From assembly GCA_951813545.1 (NCBI GenBank), contig OX638352.1:4867966-4931965 (forward strand): DNA of 64,000 nucleotides, written 5' to 3'. The notes beneath the pieces are model-generated. The model did no database searches. It was not told the origin of the DNA and saw only the letters and a program-made list of their open reading frames with translations. This stretch comes from an uncultured Poribacteria bacterium. Lineage in GTDB: Bacteria > Poribacteria > WGA-4E > WGA-3G. Positions 9,014 to 53,787 of this stretch are shown in pieces. The translations under genes were made by a program, and so were the position numbers. The first letter of the stretch is position 1. The number at the start of each line of letters is the position of its first letter.

Positions 9014-9071
9014 GGTGATTTCTCCTCTGTTTTTTTGTTTAGATTTTACAATTACTTAGACATTTTAAAGA

Positions 9072-34471: not shown

Positions 34472-35050
34472 ATGACAACACAATCGCATGTCATCCTCAA
34501 CATAGCATTCCTCTCAAAGCGAGACAAACCCTTTCTTCACTGCTATGCCTTTATTGGTGCTGTCCTTCCTGACCTACCAATGTTCGTTTTCTTCGTTGTC
34601 GAAACTTTTATCCGAAAGACACCGCAGCGTGAACTCTGGGATTCCCGATACTTTACGGAGGCGTGGCAAACTTTCTTTGACCTTTTCAACGCGATCCCGC
34701 TGATTTTGATTCTTTTGGGGATTGGATATTACCTACTGAACTCCGAGAAAATCACTGTCTTCGCGTGGAGTATGCTTATCCATTGCTTCTTTGACTTTAT
34801 GACACACCACGACGATGGGCATCATCACTTTTTTCCACTCTCCGATTTTGTCTTTGAAAGCCCTATCTCGTATTGGGACGAAGATCATTATGGTAGGGTC
34901 GTCGCGCCGATAGAGCGGTTGGTTATACTTGTTGCCTCTATCTATCTGTTTCCGAGACTGAAAACCCGACTCGCTCGATGGGGTCTGGTACTCGTAAATG
35001 TGTTGTTCCTCGCCTCTTATCTTCTTCTCCTTTTTAGGCGTCGCGGTTAA
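34472..35050 (+). CDS. Membrane-bound putative metal-dependent hydrolase, His-rich
   Basis: Several TM helices and a His cluster MTHHDDGHHHFFP. The CRISPR array begins 16 nt after its stop. Confidence 0.35.
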   Translation: MTTQSHVILNIAFLSKRDKPFLHCYAFIGAVLPDLPMFVFFVVETFIRKTPQRELWDSRYFTEAWQTFFDLFNAIPLILILLGIGYYLLNSEKITVFAWSMLIHCFFDFMTHHDDGHHHFFPLSDFVFESPISYWDEDHYGRVVAPIERLVILVASIYLFPRLKTRLARWGLVLVNVLFLASYLLLLFRRRG

Positions 35051-35066: not shown

Positions 35067-38000
35067 GTTTCAATTCTCTACTGGTTCGATTAAAAACTAA
35101 ATAGTGGTCGGCTATCGGCAGTCGGCAAAGAAGTTTCTATTCCATACTGGTTCGATTAAAAGCAGATGCACTATGACTATTTGGAGAAGTATCGTAGTTT
35201 CTATTCTATACTGGTTCGATTAAAAGTGTAAAAACCACCTGCCGTAAGAACTGCCAATTCAACGTTTCTATTCCATACTGGTTCGATTAAAAGATCAGAA
35301 GTTAATTTCAACCAAGACGCACCGGGATAAGTTTCTATTCCATACTGGTTCGATTAAAAGGGTACCTCTTCCTTTTTGTTACTAGAGAAGATGTGGTTTC
35401 TATTCCATACTGGTTCGATTAAAAAGTCTTCATCACTCATGCCATCATAGAAATTTAATGTGCGTTTCTATTCCATACTGGTTCGATTAAAAGGTCGATC
35501 TTTTCTATGAACGACTGAATCTCCGAGCACGTTTCTATTCCATACTGGTTCGATTAAAAGGCGGTCCAAAATAATTTCCCCCACCTTACAACATTTAGAT
35601 GTTTCTATTCCATACTGGTTCGATTAAAAGTCAACCCATGCCCGATCGTATCCGTCTTGCCTCATGTTTCTATTCCATACTGGTTCGATTAAAAGAGCAA
35701 CAGACTTAACACGTCCACCGTGCATCTCGAGACCGTTTCTATTCCATACTGGTTCGATTAAAAGCTACAGGCAGTTAAGGACATGGCGGACGTAGCACGT
35801 TTCTATTCCATACTGGTTCGATTAAAAGGCGGATGTAGCCCTCTGGTGATTGCCACACACAGGAGTGTTTCTATTCCATACTGGTTCGATTAAAAGGACG
35901 TGGGAAATGTGATAAGCCTCTAAGCAAGAAGCCGGTTTCTATTCCATACTGGTTCGATTAAAAGTTCGGTTGGGAGGAGTTTATGAAAGAGAGGAAAAGA
36001 GAAGTTTCTATTCCATACTGGTTCGATTAAAAGAGAGGCACTCAAAGCGAATCCGCCTACGGAAGTCCAGTTTCTATTCCATACTGGTTCGATTAAAAGC
36101 GAAAACAAAATGGGGGCAGCTTTTATTTAATAGTTTCTATTCCATACTGGTTCGATTAAAAGTGTTCATGAACAAATGAACGTCTCTGTCTATGAACGTT
36201 TCTATTCCATACTGGTTCGATTAAAAGTGATCTTCACTGGCAGAACGGAGGTGAAAAATGACAACCTTGTTTCTATTCCATACTGGTTCGATTAAAAGAC
36301 TCGTTCCGTTTCGGTATGGCACAACGAAATTCTGGTTTCTATTCCATACTGGTTCGATTAAAAGCGCTGAGTTCAGGGTTAGGGAGGCTTTGTTTCACGT
36401 TTCTATTCCATACTGGTTCGATTAAAAGTAGAATCCAACTCCGCTTTCCAGTATCTCATCAATAATGTTTCTATTCCATACTGGTTCGATTAAAAGTATC
36501 GCTTTTGCGATCGTCTCGGAAACGGCAAAGGCAAGTTTCTATTCCATACTGGTTCGATTAAAAGGAAAACCTGCCTTTAGCGAAAGGAGTTGATGAAGAT
36601 GAGTTTCTATTCCATACTGGTTCGATTAAAAGCAACTCACCTTGCTTATCTGCTCTATCGCTAAATATGTTTCTATTCCATACTGGTTCGATTAAAAGTT
36701 AATCCTGCATTTCCGTGCCGCTGGACTCTAAAAGTTTCTATTCCATACTGGTTCGATTAAAAGGGCGGTATCACACACAGACGGATCAGGGCGATATACG
36801 TTTCTATTCCATACTGGTTCGATTAAAAGGGTCATCAGTCTCTTATCAGCACTGCCCCATCGGATACGTTTCTATTCCATACTGGTTCGATTAAAAGGAC
36901 GTAGACCTGCGTATACTGCCGATCAAACCAGAAGTTTCTATTCCATACTGGTTCGATTAAAAGTTATGACTGGTACGTTAGGCCGACCGACGACGCAGCG
37001 TTTCTATTCCATACTGGTTCGATTAAAAGGCGTCGCCGCTTTCGGCTCTTTCGATACTTTCTGACAAATGTTTCTATTCCATACTGGTTCGATTAAAAGT
37101 CGCAGGCACGGCAACCGATCCGCAGATACGTTACATGTTTCTATTCCATACTGGTTCGATTAAAAGGGACGTGTTGCCTGCGTGGAACCCGGATGAGAAT
37201 GTTTCTATTCCATACTGGTTCGATTAAAAGATTAGTAACCGCTTTCGTGTATCCAACACGATAAAGTTTCTATTCCATACTGGTTCGATTAAAAGGCTTG
37301 CCAAAGTTCGTCACGCTCATGCTTGTCTTGAATGTTTCTATTCCATACTGGTTCGATTAAAAGCGGTGCGTACAGCTGAGCACCCGTCAATTCAAACTTT
37401 TGGTTTCTATTCCATACTGGTTCGATTAAAAGCTTCCTATTCCGCCGCAACCCTCCGGTAGTTTCCTATAAGTTTCTATTCCATACTGGTTCGATTAAAA
37501 GCACTCGCTATTTCAACGATTGAACCAACGCTTGACGCAGTTTCTATTCCATACTGGTTCGATTAAAAGCGTTCACAGCACGCCACACGTCCGCCAGTTG
37601 AAAGCAGTTTCTATTCCATACTGGTTCGATTAAAAGGATGCTAAGCGTGAGTGTTCTCCTCAGCAAGAGCGTGTTTCTATTCCATACTGGTTCGATTAAA
37701 AGGGTCCCCGATCGGGGAAATGATATTGACTTGATTTCGTTTCTATTCCATACTGGTTCGATTAAAAGTAAGCGATCTGAGTGTTATAATCATTTAACTG
37801 ACACGTTTCTATTCCATACTGGTTCGATTAAAAGACGATGATAAACTGCTTGATGCATGTTTGGCACTCAAGTTTCTATTCCATACTGGTTCGATTAAAA
37901 GTGCATATCGTGCAATTGACTTCTCCCACACCTAAGTTTCTATTCCATACTGGTTCGATTAAAAGTGTGATAGGTTCGTTCACAAATGCGTATTGCGGGT

Positions 38001-41000
38001 GTTTGTTTCTATTCCATACTGGTTCGATTAAAAGAATGGCGATCTGCGTTACAGGGCTTTTTTTGTCATTCCAGTTTCTATTCCATACTGGTTCGATTAA
38101 AAGTGTAGGGAGTAATCACGAGGTTTATTTTCTATCTAAGTTTCTATTCCATACTGGTTCGATTAAAAGTATTGCAAAGATGTTCCATTTGTGAACATCT
38201 ATATGAAGTTTCTATTCCATACTGGTTCGATTAAAAGCGACTCAGAAAACAGGGTCGTAGGAGCTGGGGGGCGTTTCTATTCCATACTGGTTCGATTAAA
38301 AGATCTCGTTTCGCAGGGCTATGACGAAGACACAATCAAGTTTCTATTCCATACTGGTTCGATTAAAAGGCACGTACTTAATGCGTCCTCTGAAGCCCTT
38401 GTACTTTTTGTTTCTATTCCATACTGGTTCGATTAAAAGTCGATGCTCGTCCAATTTTGAAGCTTACCATCTCCGCAGTGTTTCTATTCCATACTGGTTC
38501 GATTAAAAGACAACACTTACTTCCAGGATGAGGACTACTACATAACGTTTCTATTCCATACTGGTTCGATTAAAAGTCAGATTGGTTCCCCTGATCATAA
38601 TGCTTATACGACCTATCTTGTTTCTATTCCATACTGGTTCGATTAAAAGTCATCACCCACAAGTTCCATCGTCTGAATCAAAGGGGTTTCTATTCCATAC
38701 TGGTTCGATTAAAAGGCCGCTTGAATCGCTGCTAAACAAGTGCCAGGAGTGTTTCTATTCCATACTGGTTCGATTAAAAGGAGGCTGTACTGGGTGCATC
38801 GCTTCGCCCATTGATCCAAACGAGTTTCTATTCCATACTGGTTCGATTAAAAGACGCGTCGTCGACAGGCTTTACATACCAATCGTAGGTTTCTATTCCA
38901 TACTGGTTCGATTAAAAGGACTGAAAGCGTAACTCTCCGACCATATTCGTAGCAGGTTTCTATTCCATACTGGTTCGATTAAAAGCAGTTCGGCTGGGAG
39001 AAATTTATGGAAGGAGTCAAAAGGCAAGTTTCTATTCCATACTGGTTCGATTAAAAGCACCAACAGTCCCACCTTCAGTCCCCCAGAGAAAGTGTTTCTA
39101 TTCCATACTGGTTCGATTAAAAGATGCAGGAGAAGGAGACAGTAAGGGATCACGTGAAGGGTTTCTATTCCATACTGGTTCGATTAAAAGTTTGGGCAAA
39201 ACGTTCAAGCATAGCATCCAGAAAAACGTTTCTATTCCATACTGGTTCGATTAAAAGTGTACAGTCTCGGTAAGGCACGTATCACACTTCCTGCGTTTCT
39301 ATTCCATACTGGTTCGATTAAAAGAACATGCCCGTCCGCTGCAGGAAGATGGTACGGAAGTTTCTATTCCATACTGGTTCGATTAAAAGTATTATTGCTT
39401 GTGTCGGTGCGTCCGACTTTTCTGTGTTTCTATTCCATACTGGTTCGATTAAAAGTCGTAACAACGTGTAGTAACTTCTGCAAAATTGCGGTTTCTATTC
39501 CATACTGGTTCGATTAAAAGGCTATTGGAGTTGCTTATTATGAAACTTGAAAAAGAGTTTCTATTCCATACTGGTTCGATTAAAAGTTAGAAAACACAAT
39601 ATCATCCTCCTCCACCAGTATGTTTCTATTCCATACTGGTTCGATTAAAAGAAACGCTCTGTCCAGTAAGTCTTTATCCACGCCCACAAGTTTCTATTCC
39701 ATACTGGTTCGATTAAAAGTGGTGTTTCTACCCCCGCTATCAACCGCCTAACGAATGTTTCTATTCCATACTGGTTCGATTAAAAGAGAAACTGCTTCTG
39801 TAACCGCTTACTAATAATGATGCGTTTCTATTCCATACTGGTTCGATTAAAAGAGGAGATGCCCAATGTGCGTTGGTGGGAAAATATGTGTTTCTATTCC
39901 ATACTGGTTCGATTAAAAGGCAAGGTGCTTGGTGCTGGTGGTGCAGGGTAAGACTGTTTCTATTCCATACTGGTTCGATTAAAAGTTATCAAGTCGAAGA
40001 AGCAATCGCTTAAACCTAAGTTTCTATTCCATACTGGTTCGATTAAAAGTCTATGAAATGATCGTCGTCGCTCAACTCGTACCGTTGTTTCTATTCCATA
40101 CTGGTTCGATTAAAAGGCGCCTCTTGCAGTTGTTGGGCTGTATCCGAGAGTTGCGTTTCTATTCCATACTGGTTCGATTAAAAGTGAACCAAGCCGTACG
40201 AACGACACAGACATTTGAATGTTTCTATTCCATACTGGTTCGATTAAAAGTTTGCCGCGTGGCATTTTCTACACACTTCGCGAGAGTTTCTATTCCATAC
40301 TGGTTCGATTAAAAGGTCTTTGAGAAACGTCAACGCGTTAGCTATCTTTGGTTTCTATTCCATACTGGTTCGATTAAAAGTCCTGCATCGAAGATTCATC
40401 GAGCGCAAGTTCCATGTTTCTATTCCATACTGGTTCGATTAAAAGGCGAATAGAGATGTGGACTGTTCGGGATTCCTTAGTGTGTTTCTATTCCATACTG
40501 GTTCGATTAAAAGTTAAGGTTGAGGCAGGTGATGTTGATGTTCAGTCCTAGTTTCTATTCCATACTGGTTCGATTAAAAGTCAAGCACTCCATTCAAAAA
40601 AACCGGCTCCTACAACAAGCGTTTCTATTCCATACTGGTTCGATTAAAAGATCCACGCCCACAAAGGAGCATAGACAATTTCCTTTTTTCTATTCCATAC
40701 TGGTTCGATTAAAAGAATTGCCAAGAGAGTATCTCAGCACCTTCAATACGTAAGTTTCTATTCCATACTGGTTCGATTAAAAGTTCCATCTCTTCAAATG
40801 AATAACCTCCGTGGAAGTTTCTATTCCATACTGGTTCGATTAAAAGGCGCGTCCTTCACGGGCGCGTCAAATCCTGCAAGGTGCTGTTTCTATTCCATAC
40901 TGGTTCGATTAAAAGTTGCCAAACCAGACAATCAGCATGTACTGACCCAAGAATTGTTTCTATTCCATACTGGTTCGATTAAAAGTCCTGTTCCCGATCG

Positions 41001-44000
41001 TGGCAATGATATTGATCTGATCTGTTTCTATTCCATACTGGTTCGATTAAAAGTTGATAGTCATGGGTTACCTGTTGACGTTGCTAAGTTTCTATTCCAT
41101 ACTGGTTCGATTAAAAGGTACCCATTTTCCGTCTTACCGTTAGCAACGTCAACGTTTCTATTCCATACTGGTTCGATTAAAAGCGCACAACTGATGCAGT
41201 TCCGCCCCCCCCAGGAATGTTTCTATTCCATACTGGTTCGATTAAAAGAAAGATCTGAATTAAACTGCTATCTTCACATTCTGTCGTGTTTCTATTCCAT
41301 ACTGGTTCGATTAAAAGCATGTCAGGCGGTGCCATGATGCACATTAACTTCAAGATCAGGGTTTCTATTCCATACTGGTTCGATTAAAAGTCATCGAACC
41401 CATCCACGACATCGACGAACGCCGCGTTTCTATTCCATACTGGTTCGATTAAAAGGGGTATCGTCCGGCATAGCGCTCACAGGCGTAGAGGGTTTCTATT
41501 CCATACTGGTTCGATTAAAAGATCAATAAAATTTTCTTCAAAGGTGCTGTGCAGTGTTTCTATTCCATACTGGTTCGATTAAAAGTCCCTTCTATTAAGG
41601 TATCCACAAGTTCATTCTGGTTTCTATTCCATACTGGTTCGATTAAAAGCCTGACAGCCACAATTATCGCAGACGTTGACAGCGTGGTTTCTATTCCATA
41701 CTGGTTCGATTAAAAGCCGATGGCAAGGGAATAAACCCCCTTGCCACAACAAAGTTTCTATTCCATACTGGTTCGATTAAAAGTAACTTCGGATCGTCTT
41801 CATCATCAAAGTCTTGTTGAGTTTCTATTCCATACTGGTTCGATTAAAAGGCGAAACGAGATCAGCATACGCGTTCGACGCGCCCCAGTTTCTATTCCAT
41901 ACTGGTTCGATTAAAAGGAGGTTATCCAAAGTTACTACGACCGTAACGAAAAAGGTTTCTATTCCATACTGGTTCGATTAAAAGGCAGGCATCAAGCGAA
42001 ACTTACGGAGGTTATCACAGTTTCTATTCCATACTGGTTCGATTAAAAGTTATTCGGTGCGTCATAAAGCACGCGACCATTTGCAAGTTTCTATTCCATA
42101 CTGGTTCGATTAAAAGGTCTTACCAAACGGATGCCTCTGGGACAGATGAAGGTTTCTATTCCATACTGGTTCGATTAAAAGTTTATCGGGGGGAATTACC
42201 CAGAGGGCTATGGCGGCGTTTCTATTCCATACTGGTTCGATTAAAAGAACAGGGCGGAGTCCTCTTGGGGATTGTTGGTCACGTTTCTATTCCATACTGG
42301 TTCGATTAAAAGGCGGGAACATCAGAAACGGTATGAGGAAATCCGTATAGGTTTCTATTCCATACTGGTTCGATTAAAAGACGCGCCGAGAGAGACGCAC
42401 TGTACACACTTCGCAGTGGTTTCTATTCCATACTGGTTCGATTAAAAGATTAACACCTAAATCACTTTGAAACGTTTGACGTGGTTTCTATTCCATACTG
42501 GTTCGATTAAAAGGAGACATTCATACCGATGTCGATACCGATCTCTTGGGTTTCTATTCCATACTGGTTCGATTAAAAGCGGATACGGGCGGTGCTCTTA
42601 GAACTGTATATCTCGTGTTTCTATTCCATACTGGTTCGATTAAAAGGGGTTTCCTGACGCATAGTAATCCATTTTTTGATCTACGTTTCTATTCCATACT
42701 GGTTCGATTAAAAGAAAATTCAGAGTGTTACACCAAAGGGACACCTTTTCGAGTTTCTATTCCATACTGGTTCGATTAAAAGGTCAGGAAAGAAGATGAC
42801 GCAGGAGGGTTAAACGTTTCTATTCCATACTGGTTCGATTAAAAGTTCCCCGCACTGCCAAGATAAAGAAGAGCAATTTCATAGTTTCTATTCCATACTG
42901 GTTCGATTAAAAGCTGGTCAAAACTAGGCTCCCAACAACAACCAGTTAAGTTTCTATTCCATACTGGTTCGATTAAAAGTCACAAACTGAGCAGTGCCGA
43001 CAACCCACCTTGACATGTTTCTATTCCATACTGGTTCGATTAAAAGTCAAGGTCGTGGAAGGCAGGATAATCGTTTTCAAGATGTTTCTATTCCATACTG
43101 GTTCGATTAAAAGGGTACTTTCGAGAACCCTAATGCGACTTTTGATAGTCAAGTTTCTATTCCATACTGGTTCGATTAAAAGCGCACGCACGCCTGCAAC
43201 AGTCTCTCCGACTGTAATGTTTCTATTCCATACTGGTTCGATTAAAAGATAAACTTCTCCCAGCCAAACTGGGATGTCAACATACGATCATGTTTCTATT
43301 CCATACTGGTTCGATTAAAAGCTCCGCTTTCGGCCTTTGCGATAGCGTCTCCGAGATTGTTTCTATTCCATACTGGTTCGATTAAAAGATATGCTCCTCG
43401 CACGGTTCAGGCTGGGTGGCTTAGGTTTCTATTCCATACTGGTTCGATTAAAAGGACATAGCTACAAATATAGGAGGTATCAGCAGTGGGTGTTTCTATT
43501 CCATACTGGTTCGATTAAAAGTGAAATGATACAGGCATGGGCTTCTGGAGAGATGACAAGTTTCTATTCCATACTGGTTCGATTAAAAGACGTTTAGACG
43601 ACCGTTTACGATGATGCTTGCGAACGTTTCTATTCCATACTGGTTCGATTAAAAGTCCAGATATGGCAGTTGACACCGAGATTCACAGAATTGTTTCTAT
43701 TCCATACTGGTTCGATTAAAAGGTATGAGGAAATCCGTATAGCGGAAGCGACGTTGGAAGGTTTCTATTCCATACTGGTTCGATTAAAAGTATACAGCCA
43801 GCGGTACGGTAGAAGTTCAATATAGTGTTTCTATTCCATACTGGTTCGATTAAAAGCTTACACGTATCGACCGGCAGTGATACTCGATCTGATGTTTCTA
43901 TTCCATACTGGTTCGATTAAAAGAATATCTATGTCCTGCTCACTGACAGAAACATCCTGGTTTCTATTCCATACTGGTTCGATTAAAAGCCAAGAAATTA

Positions 44001-44322
44001 TACCAGCCACCCGTATCGGTCCAAGTTTCTATTCCATACTGGTTCGATTAAAAGCGAACTCAACTTACCGACAGCCGAATCGACATCATCAAGTTTCTAT
44101 TCCATACTGGTTCGATTAAAAGAGCGCACTTGGCGCGATGTGGTATCCCGATACATAAGAGTTTCTATTCCATACTGGTTCGATTAAAAGCACTCGAATC
44201 AATGCCCAAGCATCGCTTGATTTGACGTTTCTATTCCATACTGGTTCGATTAAAAGGTAAGTTGTAACAGCCTTGTTAGAACGTTTCGGAATGTTTCTAT
44301 TCCATACTGGTTCGATTAAAAG
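35067..44322 (-). CRISPR. CRISPR array with 139 copies of a 30-bp repeat (GTTTCTATTCCATACTGGTTCGATTAAAAG on the plus strand) and 138 spacers of about 34-42 nt
   Basis: Repeat starts were counted manually. The terminal repeat at 35067-35096 is degenerate (gtttcaattctctactggttcgattaaaaa). The leader-proximal perfect repeat at 44293-44322 abuts the cas2-side leader. Transcription is inferred on the minus strand, where the repeat reads CTTTTAATCGAACCAGTATGGAATAGAAAC and ends in GAAAC. Confidence 0.95.
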
Positions 44323-44579
44323 GCTCTACGAAAACCATGTATATATCATACAGAACTCCTGTGGGGCGTGTCAAGTCAATTTTACTTACTGCATGTTCTA
44401 AGACCAATTTGCTGTCGATCTTCGGTAGTGTAAATTCTCTGGGAGGTTGACGGCTCTTTACAAAGCGCGGGTTCGGACACTCATTTGACGAGAAATGACG
44501 GATGTGGTTACCTTTCAAAACCCTGATATAAGCGCGGTCGACAGCGGATTTTAGGTTTAAATTTCAGTACAAGTTACAC
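44323..44579 (-). promoter_or_regulatory. CRISPR leader
   Basis: A 257-bp non-coding segment between the cas2 stop and the first perfect repeat. The degenerate repeat at the opposite end of the array supports this as the leader side. Confidence 0.55.
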
Positions 44580-44843
44580 CTAAAGCAAGTTTGTTGCCGG
44601 GTTTTTATCTACACCCATAACCTCTTTATTCATCCAGCGGACATCGCGTAACTGGTAGATGATAATGGAGTCCTTTTCGGGATCAGTGAGTGCTGCTAAC
44701 CCAGATTTGACTCGTGCCAACTGCGCTTTGGTTAACTGTCCTTCAAAAACCGAATTTTGAATCCAATTGAGGTGTTGACGGAGATATTTGCATACCTTTG
44801 CGACACGTTCAACTTGAATGTCGTAAACGAGAATAATATACAT
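44580..44843 (-). CDS. cas2: Cas2
   Basis: MYIILVYDIQVERVAKV... matches the Cas2 N-terminus. The longer ORF's N-terminal extension is encoded by a family-1 REP hairpin (44866-44886), so the start is placed at the internal Met. Confidence 0.8.
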   Translation of the reverse strand: MYIILVYDIQVERVAKVCKYLRQHLNWIQNSVFEGQLTKAQLARVKSGLAALTDPEKDSIIIYQLRDVRWMNKEVMGVDKNPATNLL

Positions 44844-44933
44844 CGGAGACAATTCCTTGATAAGAGGCGAGGTTGGAAACCTCGCCAGCGAATACACGAG
44901 ATTAAGCGTGGCATCGCGATCATGAGATAACGC

Positions 44934-45947
44934 CTACCACCACGGACGTAATGCCTGATAGGTTTCCATTTCGACGAGATGCTTGATGAGTTTATAGCAC
45001 TCCAAACGAATCAACCGCTGATATGAGACGTGCCGTTTCAATTTGCGATGCGAAACGGTTTGCTTCATTTGTTCATCAAACGCGGCGATAAACAGTTTGC
45101 GTCCTTGTTCATTGAGGGAACACGCGCCGACGTTCGTCTCAAAGTGCTTTGACTCGTTGAGCTGCCGCCGATTGAACAATCGGAAGATAATCCTGTCAAC
45201 AATGAGAGGTTTGAAAATTTCAGCGAGGTCAAGACTGAGCGAGAAACGTCTGGCACCCGGTTCATGGAGAAAACTGATTGTGGGGTTGAGCTGCGTCCGA
45301 TAAATTTCAGTTAAACATGCTGCATATATCAACGAATTGCCAAAAGAGATGGCAGCGTTAATCGGGTTGTCCGGTGGACGGCGCACCCGCTTTTCAAAAG
45401 GTACTTTTAATTCCAAAATCGTATTGAATGCGGTGTAATATGTGTCTCGGATCGTGCCTTCATACCCCATCAACTCATTTGTGTTTTTTGCTGAAGGACT
45501 TTCCGCAAGGAGCTTTTCAATCGGTTCAATTTGGGCATTGCAATCCTTGCCTCGATTCGTGTGATACCGTAAAATTCGCAACATGTTGAAGACAGCGGAG
45601 GCGACAAACTCCTGTGCAAGAACCATCCGCTTGGTAGATTTTTCGTAGTGTTGTACCTGTTTGACAAGCAGGGAACCGGAATTGAGGTATTCTCGGGGAT
45701 AGTAACTCCCGGAATAGTAGCCGTAATAGTTAAACACATGAAAGGCGATATGTTTTTGTGCGAGAAAGTTGAGAAGCTTGGTATTGAGGTCGAGTTCCCC
45801 GTAGAAATAGAGTGCGTCGATGTCCTCAACGGGGATTGGGACCCGTGACGTATCTTCTCGTTCCAAATAAAGGGTATTGTCTTTTCGGCGCAGTCTGCCG
45901 GGTTGGGTGATGTAGTAGTTACGTGACATAATTGGTTTTCCTCCCAT
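44934..45947 (-). CDS. cas1: Cas1 integrase
   Basis: 337 aa with a typical Cas1 N-terminus (YYITQPGRLRRKDNTLYLE) and a conserved C-terminal region. Confidence 0.9.
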   Translation of the reverse strand: MGGKPIMSRNYYITQPGRLRRKDNTLYLEREDTSRVPIPVEDIDALYFYGELDLNTKLLNFLAQKHIAFHVFNYYGYYSGSYYPREYLNSGSLLVKQVQHYEKSTKRMVLAQEFVASAVFNMLRILRYHTNRGKDCNAQIEPIEKLLAESPSAKNTNELMGYEGTIRDTYYTAFNTILELKVPFEKRVRRPPDNPINAAISFGNSLIYAACLTEIYRTQLNPTISFLHEPGARRFSLSLDLAEIFKPLIVDRIIFRLFNRRQLNESKHFETNVGACSLNEQGRKLFIAAFDEQMKQTVSHRKLKRHVSYQRLIRLECYKLIKHLVEMETYQALRPWW

Positions 45948-45984
45948 GCTTGGCTTACGGCACGGCGGCGTGTGCCTGCTACCT

Positions 45985-46494
45985 TTAACTCCAGCAGAGT
46001 TCCTGATAACTACAGGATTTACAGATTTTCATATAGTCGGCGTGCGGTGGTGTCGGCAGTGCTGCAATCTCGCTTACTTTTTCAATAGCGGTTTCCACCT
46101 CTCGTTCCGTTTCGGGTGTGAGTTCAACCTCCGTGGTTCGGTGTTGACGTGGATAGTTGATAACGCCTTTCCGGTTAGATATTCCTTTCTGTTTGAGCAG
46201 ATAGAGGTAATAACAGAGTTGCATGATGTGTGCGGTTTCCATCGCGGGACCAGATTTGATGTCGTGGAGGATGCCTTGTTTGTCAACGAAGTCAATCCGG
46301 ATGAGGTCGTCGATGTTCCATTCTCTCCGTTTTTCGCGAGTGTAACTTTCGTCGTGGAGGAGTTGTCCGAGGTCAACATATTCGGAGGTATGCTCCATTT
46401 CGAGGTGGTTTCGGTAGAACCAGAGTTTGCGCGTGCAGATGTAGAGATAGTTTATGGCTGTGCCTGTGATGTTGGTGTGGTCTGGGTTTTGCAT
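45985..46494 (-). CDS. cas4: Cas4 (RecB-like nuclease with C-terminal Fe-S Cys cluster)
   Basis: The N-terminus YICTRKLWF and the C-terminal Cys pair CKSCSYQELC are characteristic. Confidence 0.8.
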   Translation of the reverse strand: MQNPDHTNITGTAINYLYICTRKLWFYRNHLEMEHTSEYVDLGQLLHDESYTREKRREWNIDDLIRIDFVDKQGILHDIKSGPAMETAHIMQLCYYLYLLKQKGISNRKGVINYPRQHRTTEVELTPETEREVETAIEKVSEIAALPTPPHADYMKICKSCSYQELCWS

Positions 46495-46520
46495 TTGTGG
46501 GTATCTCCATTTTGAATAGG

Positions 46521-48857
46521 TTATAAGAGGTTTGGGTTAGGTTCATCCAATTGCAAACCGAGTGTCTCATCATAGCAAACGTTTATGAACCGCTGAGGAT
46601 TGGAGTCATCTTTATTGAGTAAGTTTTCACGGCATAGTTTCGCGAATTGATAATCACGGATTTGGGCAACATAAGCCATTGCTTCATAATATTCTTTTTC
46701 ATCAATATGTGCTAAATAAATATCTTTGAACTTAATTGGAACGACTTCAAAGCTTTTAAATAGATTTTCAAATTCATCGCGCCCGGATTTGTCCTCAATG
46801 AAGGGAAAGATGCTTTCCACATGCTGTTCAAACATCCGTTTTGCATCCTCAAACTTTGCTCGTTCATCTTCATTGTAGTCATCACCATAAATTTCATCAA
46901 TAAGACCTTGGATTTTGGATTCGGACAGGACATCATTAACTTGAGCGAACGCGTTTTTGGTGCGTTCGACCCTTTCAGTACTATAGATGAAACTGTCGCT
47001 TTTACCACCCTGATTGCATATATGAACATCACAGATACCTTTTTTACCTTTCCGGTTGATTCGACCAAAGCGTTGGATGAGCGCGTCTATAGGTGCGGGT
47101 TCTGTAAAGAGACAATCAAAATCAATGTCAAGCGAAACCTCAACTGCTTGCGTGCCTACAAGGAAATCAGCGTTTTTAAGTTCCTTTTCAATCCGTTGTC
47201 GGTCTTTGAGAATAAATCGGCTGTGAAGAAGTTTAGCTTTGTCCTCTTTGACTGCACCCCGCAATGTTTTAAATACTTCCTGTGCCTGATTAACGGTATT
47301 ACAGACAACCATGACACGCTCTTCTTCGTTTAGCTTATCCTCTATTTGCGGAATGGCATCGTGGATATTTCCATCAAATAACTGGACCCGGTGCCGAGTG
47401 AAATTTTTGTCTCGTTCTTCTGGTGCCATTTCAATCTGTGCAATCTGTGCAAGTTGCCCAAGTGCGTCGTTAATCATCTGTTTAAGAAACTTTGGCATTG
47501 TAGCAGTCATAATGCAGAATTTTGCATCGTAATCTTCACGGAGTTTCTTTATCATTGTCAAAATAAGTGCTGTGGTGTGTGGGTCATAGGCGTGGATTTC
47601 GTCAAAAATAAAGAGTCCTTGCGACATCTCTGACATCTGCATCTCAAAGCCGCGTATACCGAAAAATGCTTTTAGCAATTGAAAGGGGGTTAGCACCTTG
47701 TAAGGACGACAGATTTTATTAGTTAGGTCTCTTTCAACTTTCGCGTGTTTTTTCGCTTGTTCCTGCACAATTAGTTTTTTAGCAGATTCAGGTTCATGTC
47801 CTTCAGCAATGAGGGTTTGATATTTGGTTTGATACTTCTCATCAATATCTTGCCGTTTGTATTCCCTATCAGCGAATTGCCGATAAATGAAGTAGGCAGC
47901 TTTACCATGCAATACACCTATTTTTTCTTTAGTAACCAATTTTTTGAGGCGTTTATACATAGCGTTGATACTCGCTGTGTAAGGTAACACGTAAAAGACG
48001 CGATTTCCCAATGTCTTGCATTGATTTTTATCGGACCAGAGGAGTGCGGCTTCGGTTTTGCCGGAACCTGTCGGTGCTGAGAGCATGAGTTGCCCAATTG
48101 TTTCACCAGAGGCTTCTTGAAAGGATTCCCATTTGTCAAACTGTTTGATCTGTTCTACAAGACACGCTTCAAGGTTATCAAGTGCAGTTTGAACCTCATT
48201 TTTGCTGGCAGAAGCAGAAGCGAGATGGTCACAGGCAATCATACACCCGCGCATAAGCATGCCGTAGGTGCCATGTAAAGGCGTTAATTCTCTGTCCTCT
48301 TTGCTGTTCAGGTAAGGTCTCAGAAATTCTCGGTAACCCCCAATGAGTTGATCTGTTGACTTAACAGGTGTCCAAAAGCATTCTGCTGTAGGACACCACT
48401 GCGGTACTTGTTCCTGAATTTCCATCAAAGCGTCCCAATTTGGCGTAAGTTCTGCAATATGCTTTTGCCATTCTTGGTAGTCATATTCGTTCTCTTGTCC
48501 ACACGAATACTTCTCTACCAGTGTCTCAATATCCTTGTGATGTGTTAAAATTGCGAGTGCAATTGCCTGTTTTGCTGATTGTGAGGTTTGAAGGTTAACA
48601 ACAAATCCTGTCGATAGGATCTCATGACGATAGTTCCATCGCTTCCCATCGGTGAGCTGCTTTTGAAAACCTGTTGCTGCCTTTCCGAAATCGTGAAGCG
48701 CAACAGCGTAGAAAAGGTGTTCAAAGAAATCGGGTACTTTGGCAACCTCGGTTAAAAACGGCATCCGCTCTCGGAGGCTATTGTATACAGCAAGGCAATT
48801 CTTTGTATGTTCAAGAAGCGTTTCCGGTGGATCGCTTTTCGCAAACAATATTGACAT
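46521..48857 (-). CDS. cas3: Cas3 (HD nuclease fused to SF2 helicase)
   Basis: HD domain (ALHDFGKA...ILTHHKD), Walker A (SAPTGSGKTEAAL) and DEAH-like (FIFDEIHAYD) motifs. Confidence 0.9.
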   Translation of the reverse strand: MSILFAKSDPPETLLEHTKNCLAVYNSLRERMPFLTEVAKVPDFFEHLFYAVALHDFGKAATGFQKQLTDGKRWNYRHEILSTGFVVNLQTSQSAKQAIALAILTHHKDIETLVEKYSCGQENEYDYQEWQKHIAELTPNWDALMEIQEQVPQWCPTAECFWTPVKSTDQLIGGYREFLRPYLNSKEDRELTPLHGTYGMLMRGCMIACDHLASASASKNEVQTALDNLEACLVEQIKQFDKWESFQEASGETIGQLMLSAPTGSGKTEAALLWSDKNQCKTLGNRVFYVLPYTASINAMYKRLKKLVTKEKIGVLHGKAAYFIYRQFADREYKRQDIDEKYQTKYQTLIAEGHEPESAKKLIVQEQAKKHAKVERDLTNKICRPYKVLTPFQLLKAFFGIRGFEMQMSEMSQGLFIFDEIHAYDPHTTALILTMIKKLREDYDAKFCIMTATMPKFLKQMINDALGQLAQIAQIEMAPEERDKNFTRHRVQLFDGNIHDAIPQIEDKLNEEERVMVVCNTVNQAQEVFKTLRGAVKEDKAKLLHSRFILKDRQRIEKELKNADFLVGTQAVEVSLDIDFDCLFTEPAPIDALIQRFGRINRKGKKGICDVHICNQGGKSDSFIYSTERVERTKNAFAQVNDVLSESKIQGLIDEIYGDDYNEDERAKFEDAKRMFEQHVESIFPFIEDKSGRDEFENLFKSFEVVPIKFKDIYLAHIDEKEYYEAMAYVAQIRDYQFAKLCRENLLNKDDSNPQRFINVCYDETLGLQLDEPNPNLL

Positions 48858-48917
48858 AGATTTTTTCTCCGTAGGGGCGTGGTCCCCACATCCGATTTTG
48901 TTTCGTTTAAATGTTCC

Positions 48918-49544
48918 TTACCATCTCGAAGGGTTGTCAGGATGCAATTGATCTAATTCCCATTTCATCGGATTATCCTGAATATATTGGCGAAGTCGTT
49001 GTAAATCTGGTTCGTCTCGGATGATATGATCGTGATAATTTCTTTGCCAAACACGCGTTCTGGGTGTATTGTAGTGTTGGTTAATATGCTTGGTGGATTG
49101 ATATTTGAAATAGGCTATGATTTTGCCTAACGAGGGCGAGGGGACCTCGCCCCTACGATTATTTTCTGGTTCGTCTGACGCAGGCGAGGGGACCTCGCCC
49201 CTACGAGTGTTGGGATCTTCTGGTGGGCGTGGGGACCTCGCCCCTACGAGTGGTTGTGGATCCCTCGTCTCTGCGATGCCCCATGAAATAATTCCGTGAA
49301 AATGATTAGGCATGATGACAGAATCGCCCAATTCAACGGAGGGAAAATGTTGTGGAATATGTTTCCAACATTCAACGACAATTTGGCCTATTGCATTCAA
49401 TCGCATTTTCCCATCTGTTATTGTCCCCAATAAACATTTTCGGTGTTGTACACAGATGGTCACGAAATATGCACCGGGTTGGCTGTAATCATAATTACGC
49501 AAACGCATGGCGCGGCGTTGAGGAAGATTGGATTTGGAGTTCAT
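48918..49544 (-). CDS. REP-associated tyrosine transposase (RAYT, IS200/Y1 HUH superfamily) carrying in-frame REP insertions
   Basis: The N-terminus RLRNYDYSQPGAYFVTICVQ, the HuH motif NHFHGII, and the C-terminal WQRNYHDHIIRDEPDLQRLRQYIQDNPMKWE (catalytic Tyr) are RAYT hallmarks. Three copies of the hairpin GGCGAGGGGACCTCGCCCCTACG, at 49135-49153, 49183-49201 and 49228-49245, lie in-frame between the HuH and Tyr motifs and encode RRGEVPSP-type segments. Confidence 0.75.
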   Translation of the reverse strand: MNSKSNLPQRRAMRLRNYDYSQPGAYFVTICVQHRKCLLGTITDGKMRLNAIGQIVVECWKHIPQHFPSVELGDSVIMPNHFHGIISWGIAETRDPQPLVGARSPRPPEDPNTRRGEVPSPASDEPENNRRGEVPSPSLGKIIAYFKYQSTKHINQHYNTPRTRVWQRNYHDHIIRDEPDLQRLRQYIQDNPMKWELDQLHPDNPSRW

Positions 49545-49562
49545 AAGGAAACCCCCTCAGCG

Positions 49563-49624
49563 GGCGAGGAAACCTCGCCCCTACGATATTTTACGGTTGA
49601 ATTGGACGAGGGGACCTCGCCCCT
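49563..49624. repeat. Two family-1 REP hairpins immediately upstream of the RAYT gene
   Basis: ggcgaggaaacctcgcccctacg (49563-49585) and gacgaggggacctcgcccctacg (49607-49629). Confidence 0.8.
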
Positions 49625-49632
49625 ACGATGTG

Positions 49633-50367
49633 TTATGGTGAGATGCTGGGGAGTTGCATCTGTTTTCCGTCCACATCAGGAACTTGATAGTTTTTGTCAA
49701 CGGGTTTCCTCTTTTGCTCATTTGGAACGGTAAACTCCCCAGGAATACGTTCGTGTAGATACACACCCCAATCCATTTCTGGGTCGTGCAAAACATCACC
49801 ACGGTATTCAATTTTTTCTGTTATCAGACAATATGCACGCGTGCCGCAAGGACGACGCGGGATTTCTGCTGTGAAATGGGTTGGAAGTGCCTGAACCTGT
49901 CCATATAATTGTGCGTCAGGAAACGGAAGCAGCGTATCTTGATAGGTTGTTTCTGATACGTTTTCGAGTTGAATTTCCTTTATAGATTCTACGGTTGCTA
50001 GATCGGAGGACCGCCCTAAGAGTAACGGATAACACGGGCGTTCAAACGCTTCTTTTAACCACATATCAGGCGTATAGAGATAGAGTTCGGGTTGGACAAG
50101 AAATTCGCGTTTGTTGACGTTTGACTTGGCATCCAATTTTCCTGCAAACTCATAGAGGGTTTCTAAATCAACGGCTTTGCCGTTACTCTTGAAAACAAAT
50201 CCGATTGTGGCATCATGTGGCGTAACCCAATCCCCCTTTGCAGCAGAAAGAAGACCATAGATTGCTGATAGTGGAGGCAAAGGGAGTGTCGGTTGGAATC
50301 CACTAATGAATAGCGGATTCCGAAACGACGCGACCCAACCGGTGATGTGCACCCGAATCACTTTCAT
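49633..50367 (-). CDS. cas5: Cas5 (type I)
   Basis: The N-terminus MKVIRVHITGWVASFRNP matches Cas5. It overlaps the cas7 stop by 4 nt. Confidence 0.7.
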   Translation of the reverse strand: MKVIRVHITGWVASFRNPLFISGFQPTLPLPPLSAIYGLLSAAKGDWVTPHDATIGFVFKSNGKAVDLETLYEFAGKLDAKSNVNKREFLVQPELYLYTPDMWLKEAFERPCYPLLLGRSSDLATVESIKEIQLENVSETTYQDTLLPFPDAQLYGQVQALPTHFTAEIPRRPCGTRAYCLITEKIEYRGDVLHDPEMDWGVYLHERIPGEFTVPNEQKRKPVDKNYQVPDVDGKQMQLPSISP

Positions 50368-51398
50368 GGTGAGTCTCCGATATGAATTTCTAACTTTTGT
50401 GATAGTTGAGCGATCACTTTATTTGGCGAATCGTAAACGATTTCGCACGGTAGATTTGTGTCCTCTCCTAACCCACACAGAGCTCCTTCTAACTCATCCA
50501 TGAACCCGTTTCGTCTGCCGATGTAAATTGCATCACAAAACCGGTCAGCGTAGTCGTCAATAACTTGTCGCAGTGCGAGTAGACTCAGTTTCCCTACACC
50601 GTTTTCTTCAACGATGAGATTCATGAAAGGATGATTGCCGCCGTCAAGGACTGAAAGAATAATAAGTTTCGGGGTGACATCGGTGAGGTGTGATGTTAAC
50701 TTTGCCCCACCACTGAGAATAGGCAGTACTTCAAGCGTCTGTTGGCAACGTCTGAGCCGAGTTTCTTTTGGTAGTACCCACGGTGATTTCTCATCTGCCT
50801 GTGAGCCACCAGCATCTTGAATCTTGGGAACATAACTCTCGGCTATGTTCAGATAACCCGTTTTATTGATGTGAGAAAACGCTCCAACAGCCGCAAGGTC
50901 AAGAGAAAAAATGCCCTGTAGAACACATGAATAAAACTGATGTTCATAAGGCACAGGGTCGCCTTTTTTTTGACGTGCCATCACGCCAAAATCGTTCGTT
51001 GGGGTTTGCGGTTCAATAGAGATAAGCGGTGAGCATTTGAGCGGTGACAAGCGGGTTACCGTCAAGTTAACCTTTTTCTTCCCTTGCATTTCGCTTTGTG
51101 CGCGCATATAACCAAAGACGTCGTCATCGTCATAAGTCACAGGGTCTGCGGCAGTAAAGGCGATTTTTTTCTCGCGTTCTATAGGTGAATTTTTCCAGTC
51201 GTCAAATTCCTGTTCAAGCGTTGTTCGCCACCAATTTCGCCATGCCTGTCCGGAAACATACGGATAGGCATCTCGTCTTTTCTGAAGTTTTTTGACGGTA
51301 ACGATATTCTCTGTGGCTTGAGATGCTTCTGTTCCAGCATTGTTTAGCGCAGAATAGGGCGCGTCAATTAGGGTTAGTCCAATAAGGTGCTTAGACAT
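50364..51398 (-). CDS. cas7: Cas7 (type I-B-like backbone subunit)
   Basis: The N-terminus LTLIDAPYSALNNAGTE...YPYVSGQAWRNWWR is typical of the Cas7 Csh2/Cst2 group. Confidence 0.75.
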   Translation of the reverse strand: MSKHLIGLTLIDAPYSALNNAGTEASQATENIVTVKKLQKRRDAYPYVSGQAWRNWWRTTLEQEFDDWKNSPIEREKKIAFTAADPVTYDDDDVFGYMRAQSEMQGKKKVNLTVTRLSPLKCSPLISIEPQTPTNDFGVMARQKKGDPVPYEHQFYSCVLQGIFSLDLAAVGAFSHINKTGYLNIAESYVPKIQDAGGSQADEKSPWVLPKETRLRRCQQTLEVLPILSGGAKLTSHLTDVTPKLIILSVLDGGNHPFMNLIVEENGVGKLSLLALRQVIDDYADRFCDAIYIGRRNGFMDELEGALCGLGEDTNLPCEIVYDSPNKVIAQLSQKLEIHIGDSP

Positions 51399-51412
51399 GA
51401 TTAGTCCTCCTT

Positions 51413-52816
51413 TTATGATGCATCATCTGCATCTGATGTATTCTCTTCTTCGTATTCTACATAACCGTGTTCTTGTAACCAACTGTGGAGTTGTTCGTAA
51501 ATCCGAAATAGCAGTAGGTCGCGTGTCTCTCGCCACGGCGTAAGGTTGAGGTTATCGCTCGCGGGGAAAAGATATTCCATGTAATCATCAATTGAAAATA
51601 AGGGTTCCGGTGCACCTTGTTGAATCCTTTCACGGATGACATAGCGTAAAATATTTCTACATTCACCGTAACTTTTTGCCCGCTCTAATTGCTTAAGCCG
51701 CTTATCATCTTTAGATTCCTGGATGCACTCAGAAATTAGATTTCCGACCTGCTTAATTTTTTCAACTCGTGTTTGCTCCATAGTTCTAACCTCCTGTAGA
51801 TAGAGGGAAAATAGTTCCCAGTTGCTGCGTGTTTTCCGCGCGAGTTTATCAATGAAAAATCCACGTATTGATTTATCCTCTAACAGATTATTATAGACTA
51901 AATTTGTCGATTTTTGATAAATCTCGGTTGGGTTTGTCTTATCCGAATCAATATTTTGAAACCCTTTTTTTGTTTGTCTCCTATAACCACTTCTGACAAT
52001 TAGATACCAGTTTTTGGCATACTGTGCCCGATGTGCATAGCGCAGAAAATTAAAGACCCTTGCTGGCAAGTGATACAGGTCTAATTCAGCTTTCCTATTA
52101 TCATTGGAAAAACTGTAAACCTGCATCGTAATATTCCCATCTGATCGTGCTTTTTCATACTCGATCATTTTCCTTACCATATAGAAAAGAGCATTTTGAG
52201 CTTTTGATTCCTTTGGATCAAAAAATCCCGTAAATTCGTTTCGGGACCCGCGACTAATAACATCTTCAATACAAGTTCTCGTCCAGTAACTTATGGCTTT
52301 CCAAGAATTTGAGTGTAAAGCTAAAAACTTTCCTCCACTACGAACAAATCCTAACGGTGCCAATTGGATAGCAAGCGCACATGCAGCACAATAACCAACG
52401 CCCTCTGCGAATAAAGGGAAGAAATTTCGTAGACTTCCAGAACCCGTGAGTGGAACTTCTGTCTTCTTAAGATGAAAATCCGCACTTCGCCTACCACATC
52501 CCATGCAATCGCCAGTATCACCCAGATCGGTAACTTTACAAAGTTGATGGAACCATTCTGATTTAAGTTCTTCATTAAGGCTCTGTATGCCTTTTTGGAT
52601 TTTGCTATGCTGGGTTAAGGTGCTGTTTGGAAAAATAAATCGGATTTGAGTGCGGTATTCGGACTCACAATAAAGCGGTACAACCTGCTGAACGACTTCT
52701 TGTAAATCTTCGACTGTAATTTCATTTGGCTGCGGGTGCCCCCCTAGCCATTCACAAATCGCACATACTCCGGCATCAACAAATGGATTGCCCATTAGTT
52801 TCTCATATATTGGCAT
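51413..52816 (-). CDS. cas8b: Putative Cas8b-like large subunit (divergent)
   Basis: 467 aa, in the large-subunit position between cas6 and cas7. It has a Cys-rich segment (CMGCGRR...CAACALA). Similarity is weak; assignment is by position. Confidence 0.45.
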   Translation of the reverse strand: MPIYEKLMGNPFVDAGVCAICEWLGGHPQPNEITVEDLQEVVQQVVPLYCESEYRTQIRFIFPNSTLTQHSKIQKGIQSLNEELKSEWFHQLCKVTDLGDTGDCMGCGRRSADFHLKKTEVPLTGSGSLRNFFPLFAEGVGYCAACALAIQLAPLGFVRSGGKFLALHSNSWKAISYWTRTCIEDVISRGSRNEFTGFFDPKESKAQNALFYMVRKMIEYEKARSDGNITMQVYSFSNDNRKAELDLYHLPARVFNFLRYAHRAQYAKNWYLIVRSGYRRQTKKGFQNIDSDKTNPTEIYQKSTNLVYNNLLEDKSIRGFFIDKLARKTRSNWELFSLYLQEVRTMEQTRVEKIKQVGNLISECIQESKDDKRLKQLERAKSYGECRNILRYVIRERIQQGAPEPLFSIDDYMEYLFPASDNLNLTPWRETRDLLLFRIYEQLHSWLQEHGYVEYEEENTSDADDAS

Positions 52817-52986
52817 AGCATTTATCTCCTTTCAAAACTACTATAAATATATTATATCCTGTTTACTAAATTAAGTAAAGTTAAAATTTATTTAGGTTTC
52901 TGCCGCGCCGAAACGAGGCGGATTTTGAGTTTTCACCGCTCTACCTAACCTACGGTTATACCTCATTTTTTATTCTTCAACTCATG

Positions 52987-53385
52987 TTAATTGAGCATTA
53001 CTTCCTTCCAAGCAGTTTTACCGAAGGGGACTGCGAATTCGGTTATTATCACATTCTCATCAAAGCCATGTTTTAATTCATCTTCAAGTTTCAATCCGAA
53101 TTGTGCGTCAGGCATTCGCCATTCAATCGATCGCGGGTGTAGATCATTATAGATCTCTACAACATGGATTGGATGTTTCTTTCTTAAATATGCCGTGTAT
53201 ACAAAAGCTTGCGTTTGATGATCTATGAACAAGTACGGTATTAGATATGCCACTCCAAGTTTGGTGAGGTAGTTGGGAACCTCGTTAGTTCTATTTGCGA
53301 CAGTACAAACAAAACCGAAAAGATTGCATTGATTCCATGCAGCAATATATTCTTTGGAAGCCTTCATAATTTCCTCCAAGTCCAT
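52987..53385 (-). CDS. Hypothetical 132-aa protein, possibly NTF2/SnoaL-like fold, inserted in the cas operon
   Basis: The N-terminus MKASKEYIAAWNQCNLFGF resembles SnoaL/NTF2-like starts. It is embedded in an AT-rich segment between cas6 and cas8. Confidence 0.35.
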   Translation of the reverse strand: MDLEEIMKASKEYIAAWNQCNLFGFVCTVANRTNEVPNYLTKLGVAYLIPYLFIDHQTQAFVYTAYLRKKHPIHVVEIYNDLHPRSIEWRMPDAQFGLKLEDELKHGFDENVIITEFAVPFGKTAWKEVMLN

Positions 53386-53590
53386 TCAGTAAAAATTCGG
53401 TCTGCATCCCATAGCAGGTTACTATATAACACTCTAATCTTAATTATACGCGAAACAACTTTATTTGTCAAATATAATTCCATTTTTTTTTAATTTAGTA
53501 TAACTTAACATAACAAAGGATTTTTTAATTATACGCGAAACAACTTTATTTGTCAAATTTCTTGATTAATTCAAAGGGTACTCCAATTCC

Positions 53591-53674
53591 AAATTGGTTC
53601 GATTAAAGATAAACAAAAAAGCGCGTTAGTATCACATAACAAAACAAGTTTCTATTCCATACTGGTTCGATTAG
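53591..53674 (-). CRISPR. Orphan mini-array: one truncated and one near-complete copy of the CRISPR repeat with a 39-nt spacer
   Basis: aaattggttcgattaaag (53591-53608) and gtttctattccatactggttcgattag (53648-53674) match the array repeat. They lie in AT-rich, leader-like sequence downstream of cas6. Confidence 0.6.
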
Positions 53675-53787
53675 ATTATTGATTTCACGTTATATTAGAC
53701 GTTTCACATTTAAAATGGTTTACAGAAACTTTTAAAATATGTGTGTGTGGTCCTCAGCCATACATAAACCCACCCTCATAGTAGGTC

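Follow-up and report, generated by a model that had tools for sequence, protein, structure and literature searches.

Several spacers of a type I-B CRISPR array from an uncultured Poribacteria bacterium overlap one another or are near-duplicates, and we attribute this, with a probability of about 0.85, to independent acquisitions, guided by the protospacer adjacent motif (PAM), from a small pool of recurrent invaders. The array lies in a 64,000-nt stretch of contig OX638352.1 (assembly GCA_951813545.1, positions 4,867,966 to 4,931,965, forward strand), which we call the window. An earlier note on this DNA had proposed repeated acquisition from the same or related invaders, and protospacers were indeed found for spacers 69/84 and 14/59/123 in a small element with a replication protein (Rep), and for spacers 49/102 in a phage.

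The adaptation module Cas1-Cas2-Cas4 of this type I-B system would cut each protospacer beside a 5'-CCN PAM. Where two CCN sites lie close together, either along one strand or pointing at each other across the two strands, overlapping spacers would result, and the same CCN site in diverged relatives would yield near-duplicates. The main invader would be a diverse set of circular rolling-circle Rep elements of 4.2-4.5 kb, and the second target a sponge phage of 65-69 kb. The acquisitions would have come in bursts, probably aided by priming from older, partly matching spacers.

Overlapping and near-duplicate spacers

Spacers are numbered from the left end of the array on the plus strand, and their positions are collected in Table 1. 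For the pair 109/130, which had drawn attention to the array, the quoted sequences and the exact overlap were reproduced: the last 20 nt of spacer 109 are the first 20 nt of spacer 130, on the same target strand and with an offset of 18 nt. The shared 20-mer lies wholly inside the spacers and is not derived from the repeat, as had been stated. Merged, the two spacers read GCGGGAACATCAGAAACGGTATGAGGAAATCCGTATAGCGGAAGCGACGTTGGAAG. Most simply, their offset would reflect how far apart two CCN sites lie on the same strand. The sequence overlap, and the analogy with the pairs verified below, suggest that both were taken from a single molecule, probably that of an additional invader missing from the databases.

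As a control for chance, the spacers were shuffled, 20 times for the longest shared word and 200 times for end-to-end overlaps. The longest substring shared among shuffled spacers was 11-14 nt. Perfect end-to-end overlaps of at least 10 nt occurred 0.025 times per shuffle, versus five in the array: 109/130 (20 nt), 69/84 (14 nt), 90/91 (14 nt), 49/102 (12 nt) and 87/73 (10 nt). All but the first had escaped the earlier note. Spacers 69 and 84 derive from the same strand, and the neighbouring spacers 90 and 91, like 49 and 102, from opposite strands. Spacer 121 overlaps spacer 90 imperfectly (10/11 nt), and together with 90 and 91 it gives an 84-nt contig.

Two pairs of near-duplicates had been described as about 80% identical. 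This figure holds for 40/89 (28/35 identical, 80%) and is too high for 14/59 (28/39 identical, 72%). The peptides reported for them, PDRGNDIDL in 40/89 and FGWE(E/K)FM in 14/59, were both confirmed by translation. The six differences between spacers 40 and 89 in their shared 33-nt frame are all synonymous, as expected if homologous genes had diverged and not if the spacers had drifted within the array. Homology also links 59/123, 14/123, 29/57 and 30/124; the pairs 62/83 and 54/56 were borderline at the nucleotide level and were then backed by mapping. In 29/57 and 59/123, the two members lie on opposite strands.

Near-duplicates could also result from duplication of repeat-spacer units inside the array, followed by mutation. 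Related Poribacteria arrays contain 31 within-array, same-strand spacer pairs of at least 30 nt with at least 90% identity, so that duplication or re-acquisition of identical spacers does occur in this lineage. For the pairs examined here, however, this explanation is refuted by the shifted ends (offsets of 18, 24 and 3 nt), by the opposite strands of 90/91, 49/102, 59/123 and 29/57, by the exclusively synonymous differences of 40/89, and by merged spacer sequences that are contiguous in real phage and element genomes; we consider it very improbable. Even less credit is due to the idea that the shared sequences are a product of chance, or a repeat or low-complexity artefact. Exact shared words of 11-14 nt do arise among shuffled spacers, but a 20-nt exact match appeared in no shuffle, the excess of end-to-end overlaps is large, the shared parts lie wholly within spacers, and two of the overlaps were recovered in real genomes, which together refute it.

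Invaders and mode of acquisition

The earlier note had recommended searching the spacers against viral, plasmid and metagenome databases. At the nucleotide level, these searches matched nothing. All 138 spacers against INPHARED phages and PLSDB plasmids gave no match at an E-value of at most 1. IMG/VR pattern scans were negative for the 20-mer, a degenerate FGWE pattern, PDRGNDIDL, YDWYV, the spacer 49 protospacer and a degenerate REHQKRYEEIRIAEA, and JGI metagenome scans were negative for the 20-mer and a degenerate 109/130 peptide pattern. Success came from another route, in which overlapping spacers were merged (56-84 nt), their open frames translated, and the concatenated peptides searched in a large protein collection. 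Merging, translation and peptide search worked where nucleotide searches failed. Three proteins were returned: P0001, a replication protein of 362 amino acids with KEIVYAPLWDWIKTYWRER (spacers 69+84) and SQFGWEKFMEEVKKK (spacers 14/59/123); P0003, a phage protein with NAYADLVSQGYDEDTI (spacers 102+49); and P0002, the array's own spurious open reading frame (ORF; 40798-41337), identical to the window ORF. The check for self-targeting that had also been proposed found no self-target within the window (best match outside the array, 15 nt), and in the non-array parts of related Poribacteria loci (about 0.85 Mb), the window spacers matched nothing beyond chance.

P0001 is encoded on contigs of 4.0-4.4 kb from five assemblies of sponge samples. 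In four of these assemblies, the terminal repeats have the length of the assembler k-mer (141, 55, 30 or 99 nt) and the gene orders are rotated, which identifies the element as a circle of 4,266 bp. In relatives, the terminal repeats give units of 4.1-4.5 kb, and the nine members of the Rep family are all found on contigs of 2.4-4.6 kb, several of them also circular. The element Rep matches PF23343 (33.2 bits versus a cut-off of 27.8) and phrog_942. Invariant in the nine family members are H157-A158-H159 (HUH-type), the catalytic tyrosine motif Y204-A205-x-K207-Y208 and, within FGWxxFM, F225, G226, W227, F230 and M231. These features predict a rolling-circle (HUH-type) replication protein on a small circular genome. 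Nine spacers fall into the Rep gene of about 1.1 kb, three of them on the invariant FGW motif.

Gene order is conserved among the circular 4.1-4.5-kb elements of the family (L049-L053, L056-L065): Rep is followed by ORFs of about 260-320, 330-540 and 250-290 amino acids and by small ORFs, and only Rep is recognisable. The elements come from sponge and other marine samples (JAHN19-1, TARA, several SRR runs, GCA_900163725.1).

Thirteen window spacers match the 4,266-bp variant at the nucleotide level with 0-9 mismatches, spacer 134 perfectly (35/35). When peptides are compared at a threshold that gives a null rate of 1/2955, 19 of the 138 spacers match the family; at the same threshold, the rate in other arrays is 0.7% overall, with enrichment in two other species, L044 (16%) and L012 (10%). 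Weaker, mutually consistent matches raise the total for the window to about 27 spacers. Spacers 29 and 57 are a borderline match to a DDW(I/L)I(R/K)xxDD motif of the element ORF261/ORF322. About 14-20% of the array is directed against the element family, and these spacers include old ones (10, 14) as well as the newest (133-135, 138). GC contents are 45.0% for the element, 45.6% for the phage and 45.7% for the host. There is a little under an even chance that the array records a long association of one Poribacteria lineage with an undescribed family of Rep elements of about 4.3 kb, which could be a major, overlooked class of single-stranded DNA (ssDNA) phages or plasmids in sponge symbionts.

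The second identified target, with P0003, is represented by contigs of 65 kb and 69 kb that carry a portal gene, namely the 64,597-bp ERZ27241716 k141_92718 and the 68,970-bp ena:ERZ23493661 JAHN19-1_SAMN10953160_METAG-scaffold_1. Six spacers (42, 44, 49, 71, 102 and 103) match the mapped 21 kb with 0-2 mismatches. On the phage contig L054, the sites of spacers 49 and 102 overlap by 12 nt on opposite strands, with starts 25 nt apart. This is the geometry predicted from the spacer overlap, which validates the reading of an end-to-end overlap as one target.

PAM consistency, another of the recommended checks, could be assessed at these protospacers. In true orientation, CCN was found 5' of 6/6 phage protospacers and of 9/13 element protospacers, with the two most diverged matches among the four exceptions. 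Flanks can also be derived from the spacers themselves, and these were CCN in 5/5 cases (spacers 69, 90, 91 and 109 from their overlap partners, spacer 87 from the alignment). In related arrays, 9 of 12 overlap-derived flanks were CCN. The PAM of this system is 5'-CCN, a known type I-B PAM (PMC8406132, PMC8482600).

Some results weigh against a small pool of recurrent invaders as the general source, or against the identity assigned to them. The target of 109/130 was found neither in INPHARED, PLSDB, IMG/VR or the JGI metagenomes nor in the large protein collection, and protospacers of 40/89, 30/124, 121/90/91 and 87/73 were absent from every collection searched. The assignments of spacers 29, 57, 31, 108, 51 and 56 are based on peptide similarity over 11-14 residues that is near the null maximum, and the phage mapping covers 21 kb of the 69-kb contig. 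As for the element, its ORF75, ORF261, ORF336 and ORF253 gave no Pfam or PHROG match, the family profiles of ORF336 and ORF261 retrieved nothing meaningful from PDB, and no capsid, coat, morphogenesis or mobilisation gene was recognisable in Pfam and PHROG searches; it may be a phage or a plasmid. The groups 109/130, 121/90/91, 87/73, 40/89 and 30/124 imply that the array has densely sampled one or more additional invaders, which are missing from the collections that were searched.

A target this small and this often sampled must give rise to overlaps. Random sampling of 4,266 bp leads one to expect 2.2 overlaps of at least 10 nt for 19 spacers, 3.6 for 24 and about 4.5 for 27. Counted in homologous coordinates, there are about eight same-site or overlapping element pairs, which is within about two-fold of the expectation, and this count is inflated because diverged spacers can be assigned only where the target is conserved. 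With overlaps so near the random expectation, priming is not needed to explain those in the element.

The earlier note had found the pattern to fit primed adaptation, which is plausible but not established: the adjacency of spacers in the array leans that way, and the overlap count near chance and a strand bias short of significance do not. As the main cause of the pattern, older imperfect spacers would recruit Cascade and Cas3, the resulting fragments would feed Cas1-Cas2-Cas4, and spacers would be acquired in bursts near the priming site. Priming is documented for type I-B in Haloarcula hispanica (PMC4066796). Seven pairs of neighbouring spacers in the array are both directed against the element family, versus 2.5 expected (p=0.004); the extended element set gives 10 such pairs versus 5.1 expected (p=0.011), and same-target adjacency over element and phage together has p=0.0015. 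Same-target runs comprise spacers 133-135 and 138, 118-123, 82-85 and 51-62, and among the six newest spacers, four are directed against the element. Possible primers exist, as family spacers range from position 10 to 138 with 0-9 mismatches to the reference variant (more for 14 and 59), and the latest eight family spacers without exception match the coding strand. However, the overall strand split (about 16 coding, 8 template) is not significant, a distance gradient is not visible on a 4.3-kb circle, and adjacency would also be expected from several naive acquisitions during one epidemic. Four of the six phage protospacers lie within 1.3 kb, with one overlapping pair versus 0.04 expected, but the region was chosen for holding 49/102, which inflates the apparent clustering. 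Priming as the main cause is a serious candidate that we place slightly short of even odds.

Somewhat lower still we rate naive acquisition at hot spots combined with selection, without priming. Free ends or ssDNA of high-copy rolling-circle replicons would be sampled, and spacers on conserved, essential Rep motifs would persist, since escape is costly. There is precedent in Clostridioides difficile type I-B, where naive spacers are non-uniform and come from plasmid ori/oriT and expected sites of free DNA ends (PMC8406132). The element overlap count near random expectation favours naive uptake, as do the nine spacers in the Rep gene and the three on its FGW motif, a site also targeted in a different Poribacteria species (L012_018). 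The preference for Rep is inflated, though, by a detection of diverged spacers that is biased to conserved motifs, and naive uptake alone leaves the same-target adjacency in the array unexplained.

The CRISPR-Cas locus and its surroundings

The 138 spacers that had been counted are confirmed by 139 repeats. On the plus strand, the repeat reads GTTTCTATTCCATACTGGTTCGATTAAAAG, and in its true sense CTTTTAATCGAACCAGTATGGAATAGAAAC. One more isolated repeat copy is found outside the array, at 53648. The array is transcribed on the minus strand, and the earlier note, which took the plus strand as the sense of the spacers, was mistaken in this respect. Several features lead to this orientation. Degenerate repeats are confined to the left end, where the copy at 35067 has 4 mismatches and those at 35197 and 35396 have 1 each. 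The array begins there 16 nt past the stop codon of an unrelated ORF (34472-35050), which leaves no room for a leader on the left. A promoter (-35 TTGACA at 44374-44369, -10 TATGAT at 44350-44345) follows cas2. Finally, an alignment with seven Poribacteria leaders shows that TTGAC, the -10 region and a GTCxACCxCC...TxGACxGCA block are all kept. This orientation puts the trailer end at 35067, makes spacer 138 the newest, and means that spacer 130 was acquired after spacer 109.

The window encodes a complete CRISPR-Cas system of type I-B, with a full set of adaptation and interference genes (Table 1). Leader-proximal spacers match present-day elements perfectly or nearly so, an indirect sign of spacer uptake or interference. 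Between cas3 and cas5b, and in the orientation of the cas operon, lies an ORF resembling REP-associated tyrosine transposases.

Table 1. Positions of the CRISPR-Cas features and of the spacers discussed in the text (window coordinates)
Feature	Position	Strand	Remarks
CRISPR array	35067..44322	-	30-nt repeat in 139 copies; 138 spacers, 33-43 nt each
Leader	44323..44579	-	257 nt between cas2 and array; sigma-70-like promoter into array
Spacer 14	35965..36003	-	FGWE group; targets invariant Rep motif SQFGWxxFME
Spacer 29	36964..36999	-	YDWYVRPTDDA; homologous to spacer 57 (38854-38888), opposite strand
Spacer 40	37703..37738	-	VPDRGNDIDLI; homologous to spacer 89
Spacer 49	38303..38339	-	Phage contig L054 10452-10488 (-), 37/37; CCT PAM
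Spacer 59	38986..39027	-	FGWE group; PAM-proximal end as spacer 14, different variant
Spacer 69	39652..39689	-	14-nt overlap with spacer 84; targets Rep gene (LWAWIKTYWTER)
Spacer 84	40651..40685	-	Targets Rep (KEIVYAPLWAW); CCT PAM
Spacer 87	40847..40885	-	10-nt overlap with spacer 73 (39920-39955); derived PAM CCA
Spacer 89	40986..41023	-	VPDRGNDIDLI; 28/35 identical to spacer 40
Spacers 90 (41054-41087) and 91 (41118-41153)	41054..41153	-	Overlap at PAM-proximal ends; PAMs CCG, CCT
Spacer 102	41851..41887	-	Phage contig L054 10427-10463 (+), 35/37; CCG PAM
Spacer 109	42313..42350	-	Older of pair 109/130; 5'-CCG PAM contained in spacer 130
Spacer 121	43114..43152	-	10/11-nt overlap with spacer 90
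Spacer 123	43249..43291	-	FGWE group, opposite strand; 21/23 identical to spacer 59
Spacer 130	43723..43760	-	Newer of pair 109/130; exact 20-nt overlap with spacer 109
Spacers 133, 134, 135	43924..44092	-	Consecutive, recent; match coding strand of 4,266-bp element
Spacer 138	44257..44292	-	Newest; Rep N-terminus (IPKRSNKAVTTY); CCT PAM
Type I-B cas operon	44580..54540	-	NCBIfam hits above curated cut-offs, transposase-like ORF excepted
cas2	44580-44897	-	Above NCBIfam cut-off
cas1b	44934-45947	-	TIGR03641, 459 bits versus cut-off 304
cas4	45985-46494	-	Above NCBIfam cut-off
cas3	46521-48857	-	778 amino acids; TIGR01596 (HD) 87.6 bits and TIGR01587 (helicase) 271.5 bits
REP-associated tyrosine-transposase-like ORF	48918-49544	-	208 amino acids; 62 bits, under 80-bit cut-off
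cas5b	49633-50367	-	TIGR01895, 145 bits, above cut-off
cas7/Cst2	50364-51398	-	TIGR02585, 207 bits, above cut-off
cas8b1/Cst1	51413-52816	-	TIGR01908, 131.4 bits versus cut-off 19.4
ORF132	52987-53385	-	Within cas operon
cas6	53788-54540	-	TIGR01877, 144 bits, above cut-off

The Cas1 protein is 85-91% identical to Cas1 of 46 loci in metagenome-assembled genomes of Candidatus Poribacteria, which are sponge symbionts. About 40 of these 46 loci share the layout of cas genes and array, with the array downstream of cas1-cas2, and they provided 2,818 spacers for comparison. The window shares no spacer with the 46 related Poribacteria arrays, and its only link to them, at the FGW site, is between window spacer 14 and L012_018; arrays of different species have almost no spacers in common. 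Related arrays of similar size differ widely in how many overlapping or duplicate spacer pairs they contain, from 8 in L010, 7 in L031 and 5 each in L012 and L030 to 0 in each of L001, L005 and L020. In the related array L009, spacer 8 matches its own locus (33/33 at 11478-11510) just upstream of the array, in the leader region, and an L027 spacer matches L002 outside the L002 array (28/29 at 20537-20565). These two matches could reflect self-targeting or a shared mobile element.

In the interval that separates cas6 from cas8b1, the minus-strand region 53677-53495 holds a degenerate mini-array. Its first repeat, at 53677-53648, has 3 mismatches; a pseudo-spacer of 37 nt follows at 53647-53611, and then a weaker repeat at 53610-53581 (about 22/30). 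A site at 53516-53495, preceded by CCT, is matched by the pseudo-spacer in 19 of its first 22 nt (mismatches at positions 6, 12 and 15), and this target lies 8 nt past the -10 box of a perfect TTGACA-17-TATAAT promoter. The same mini-array arrangement recurs in seven related Poribacteria loci with different pseudo-spacers, each with its own CCN-flanked site 100-250 nt downstream. Their pseudo-spacers match these sites in 14-18 of 18 scored positions, versus 9-11 for ordinary spacers. The covariation of pseudo-spacer and target points to the mini-array as a putative Cascade-guided repressor RNA of the CreTA or CreR type (PMC9458426; bioRxiv 10.1101/2023.03.10.532045). Upstream of ORF132 (53385-52987) and cas8b1 lie two identical blocks of about 32 nt (about 53556-53528 and 53470-53442, minus strand), about 85 nt apart, with a consensus sigma-70 promoter (TTGACAaataaagttgtttcgcgTATAAT); the pseudo-spacer target follows the first block only.

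Other repeats in the window are a perfect 64-nt tandem repeat at 9065-9252 (2.9 copies), which includes an inverted repeat (GAGGCGAGGATACAATCCTCGCC), and a 36-nt repeat at 17971-18050 (2.2 copies). A GGCGAGG...CCTCGCC hairpin near 44868-44888, just upstream of cas2, resembles the inverted repeat at 9065-9252.

Comparison with known systems

That an array holds several, partly overlapping spacers against one invader or its relatives is textbook CRISPR biology, alters no concept, and fits what is known of type I-B. New for this lineage are the array orientation, the 5'-CCN PAM, the identity of two invaders and the share of the array that small Rep elements take up. If the Rep elements are a new family of ssDNA phages or plasmids, the array links them to a host and documents how they diversified. 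The element family and the putative regulatory mini-array are more interesting leads than the overlaps themselves.

The PAM of H. hispanica is TTC. Unlike in that organism, the PAM is CCN here, and priming is suggested by adjacency in the array and by local clustering. Primed adaptation in H. hispanica type I-B is reportedly the subject of Li et al. 2014 (NAR 42:2483). The two systems have the subtype in common, and H. hispanica acquires several spacers per invader once a partly matching spacer is present (PMC4066796).

C. difficile also shares the subtype, and during adaptation it selects protospacers with a 5'-CCN flank, in keeping with its interference PAM; plasmids are sampled unevenly, with hot spots close to their origins of replication and transfer (PMC8406132). 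Unlike C. difficile, the host here is an uncultured sponge symbiont, with a single array of 138 spacers beside an operon of the Cas8b1/Cst1 type, as read from the DNA alone.

In the same ecosystem, and apparently in the same sample series (contig names JAHN19-1, SAMN109531xx), Poribacteria spacers were found to match sponge phage contigs in a CRISPR-based host assignment (Jahn et al. 2021, PMC8245591). That screen of sponge phages and hosts considered viral contigs of at least 5 kb only (PMC8245591), a cut-off by which elements of 4.3 kb would be missed. The element Rep resembles rolling-circle Reps of small ssDNA phages and plasmids (REP_ORF2-G2P PF23343, Rep_1 PF01446), and, unlike the known small ssDNA phages and plasmids, the element combines such a Rep with a genome in which no capsid, coat, morphogenesis or mobilisation gene can be recognised.

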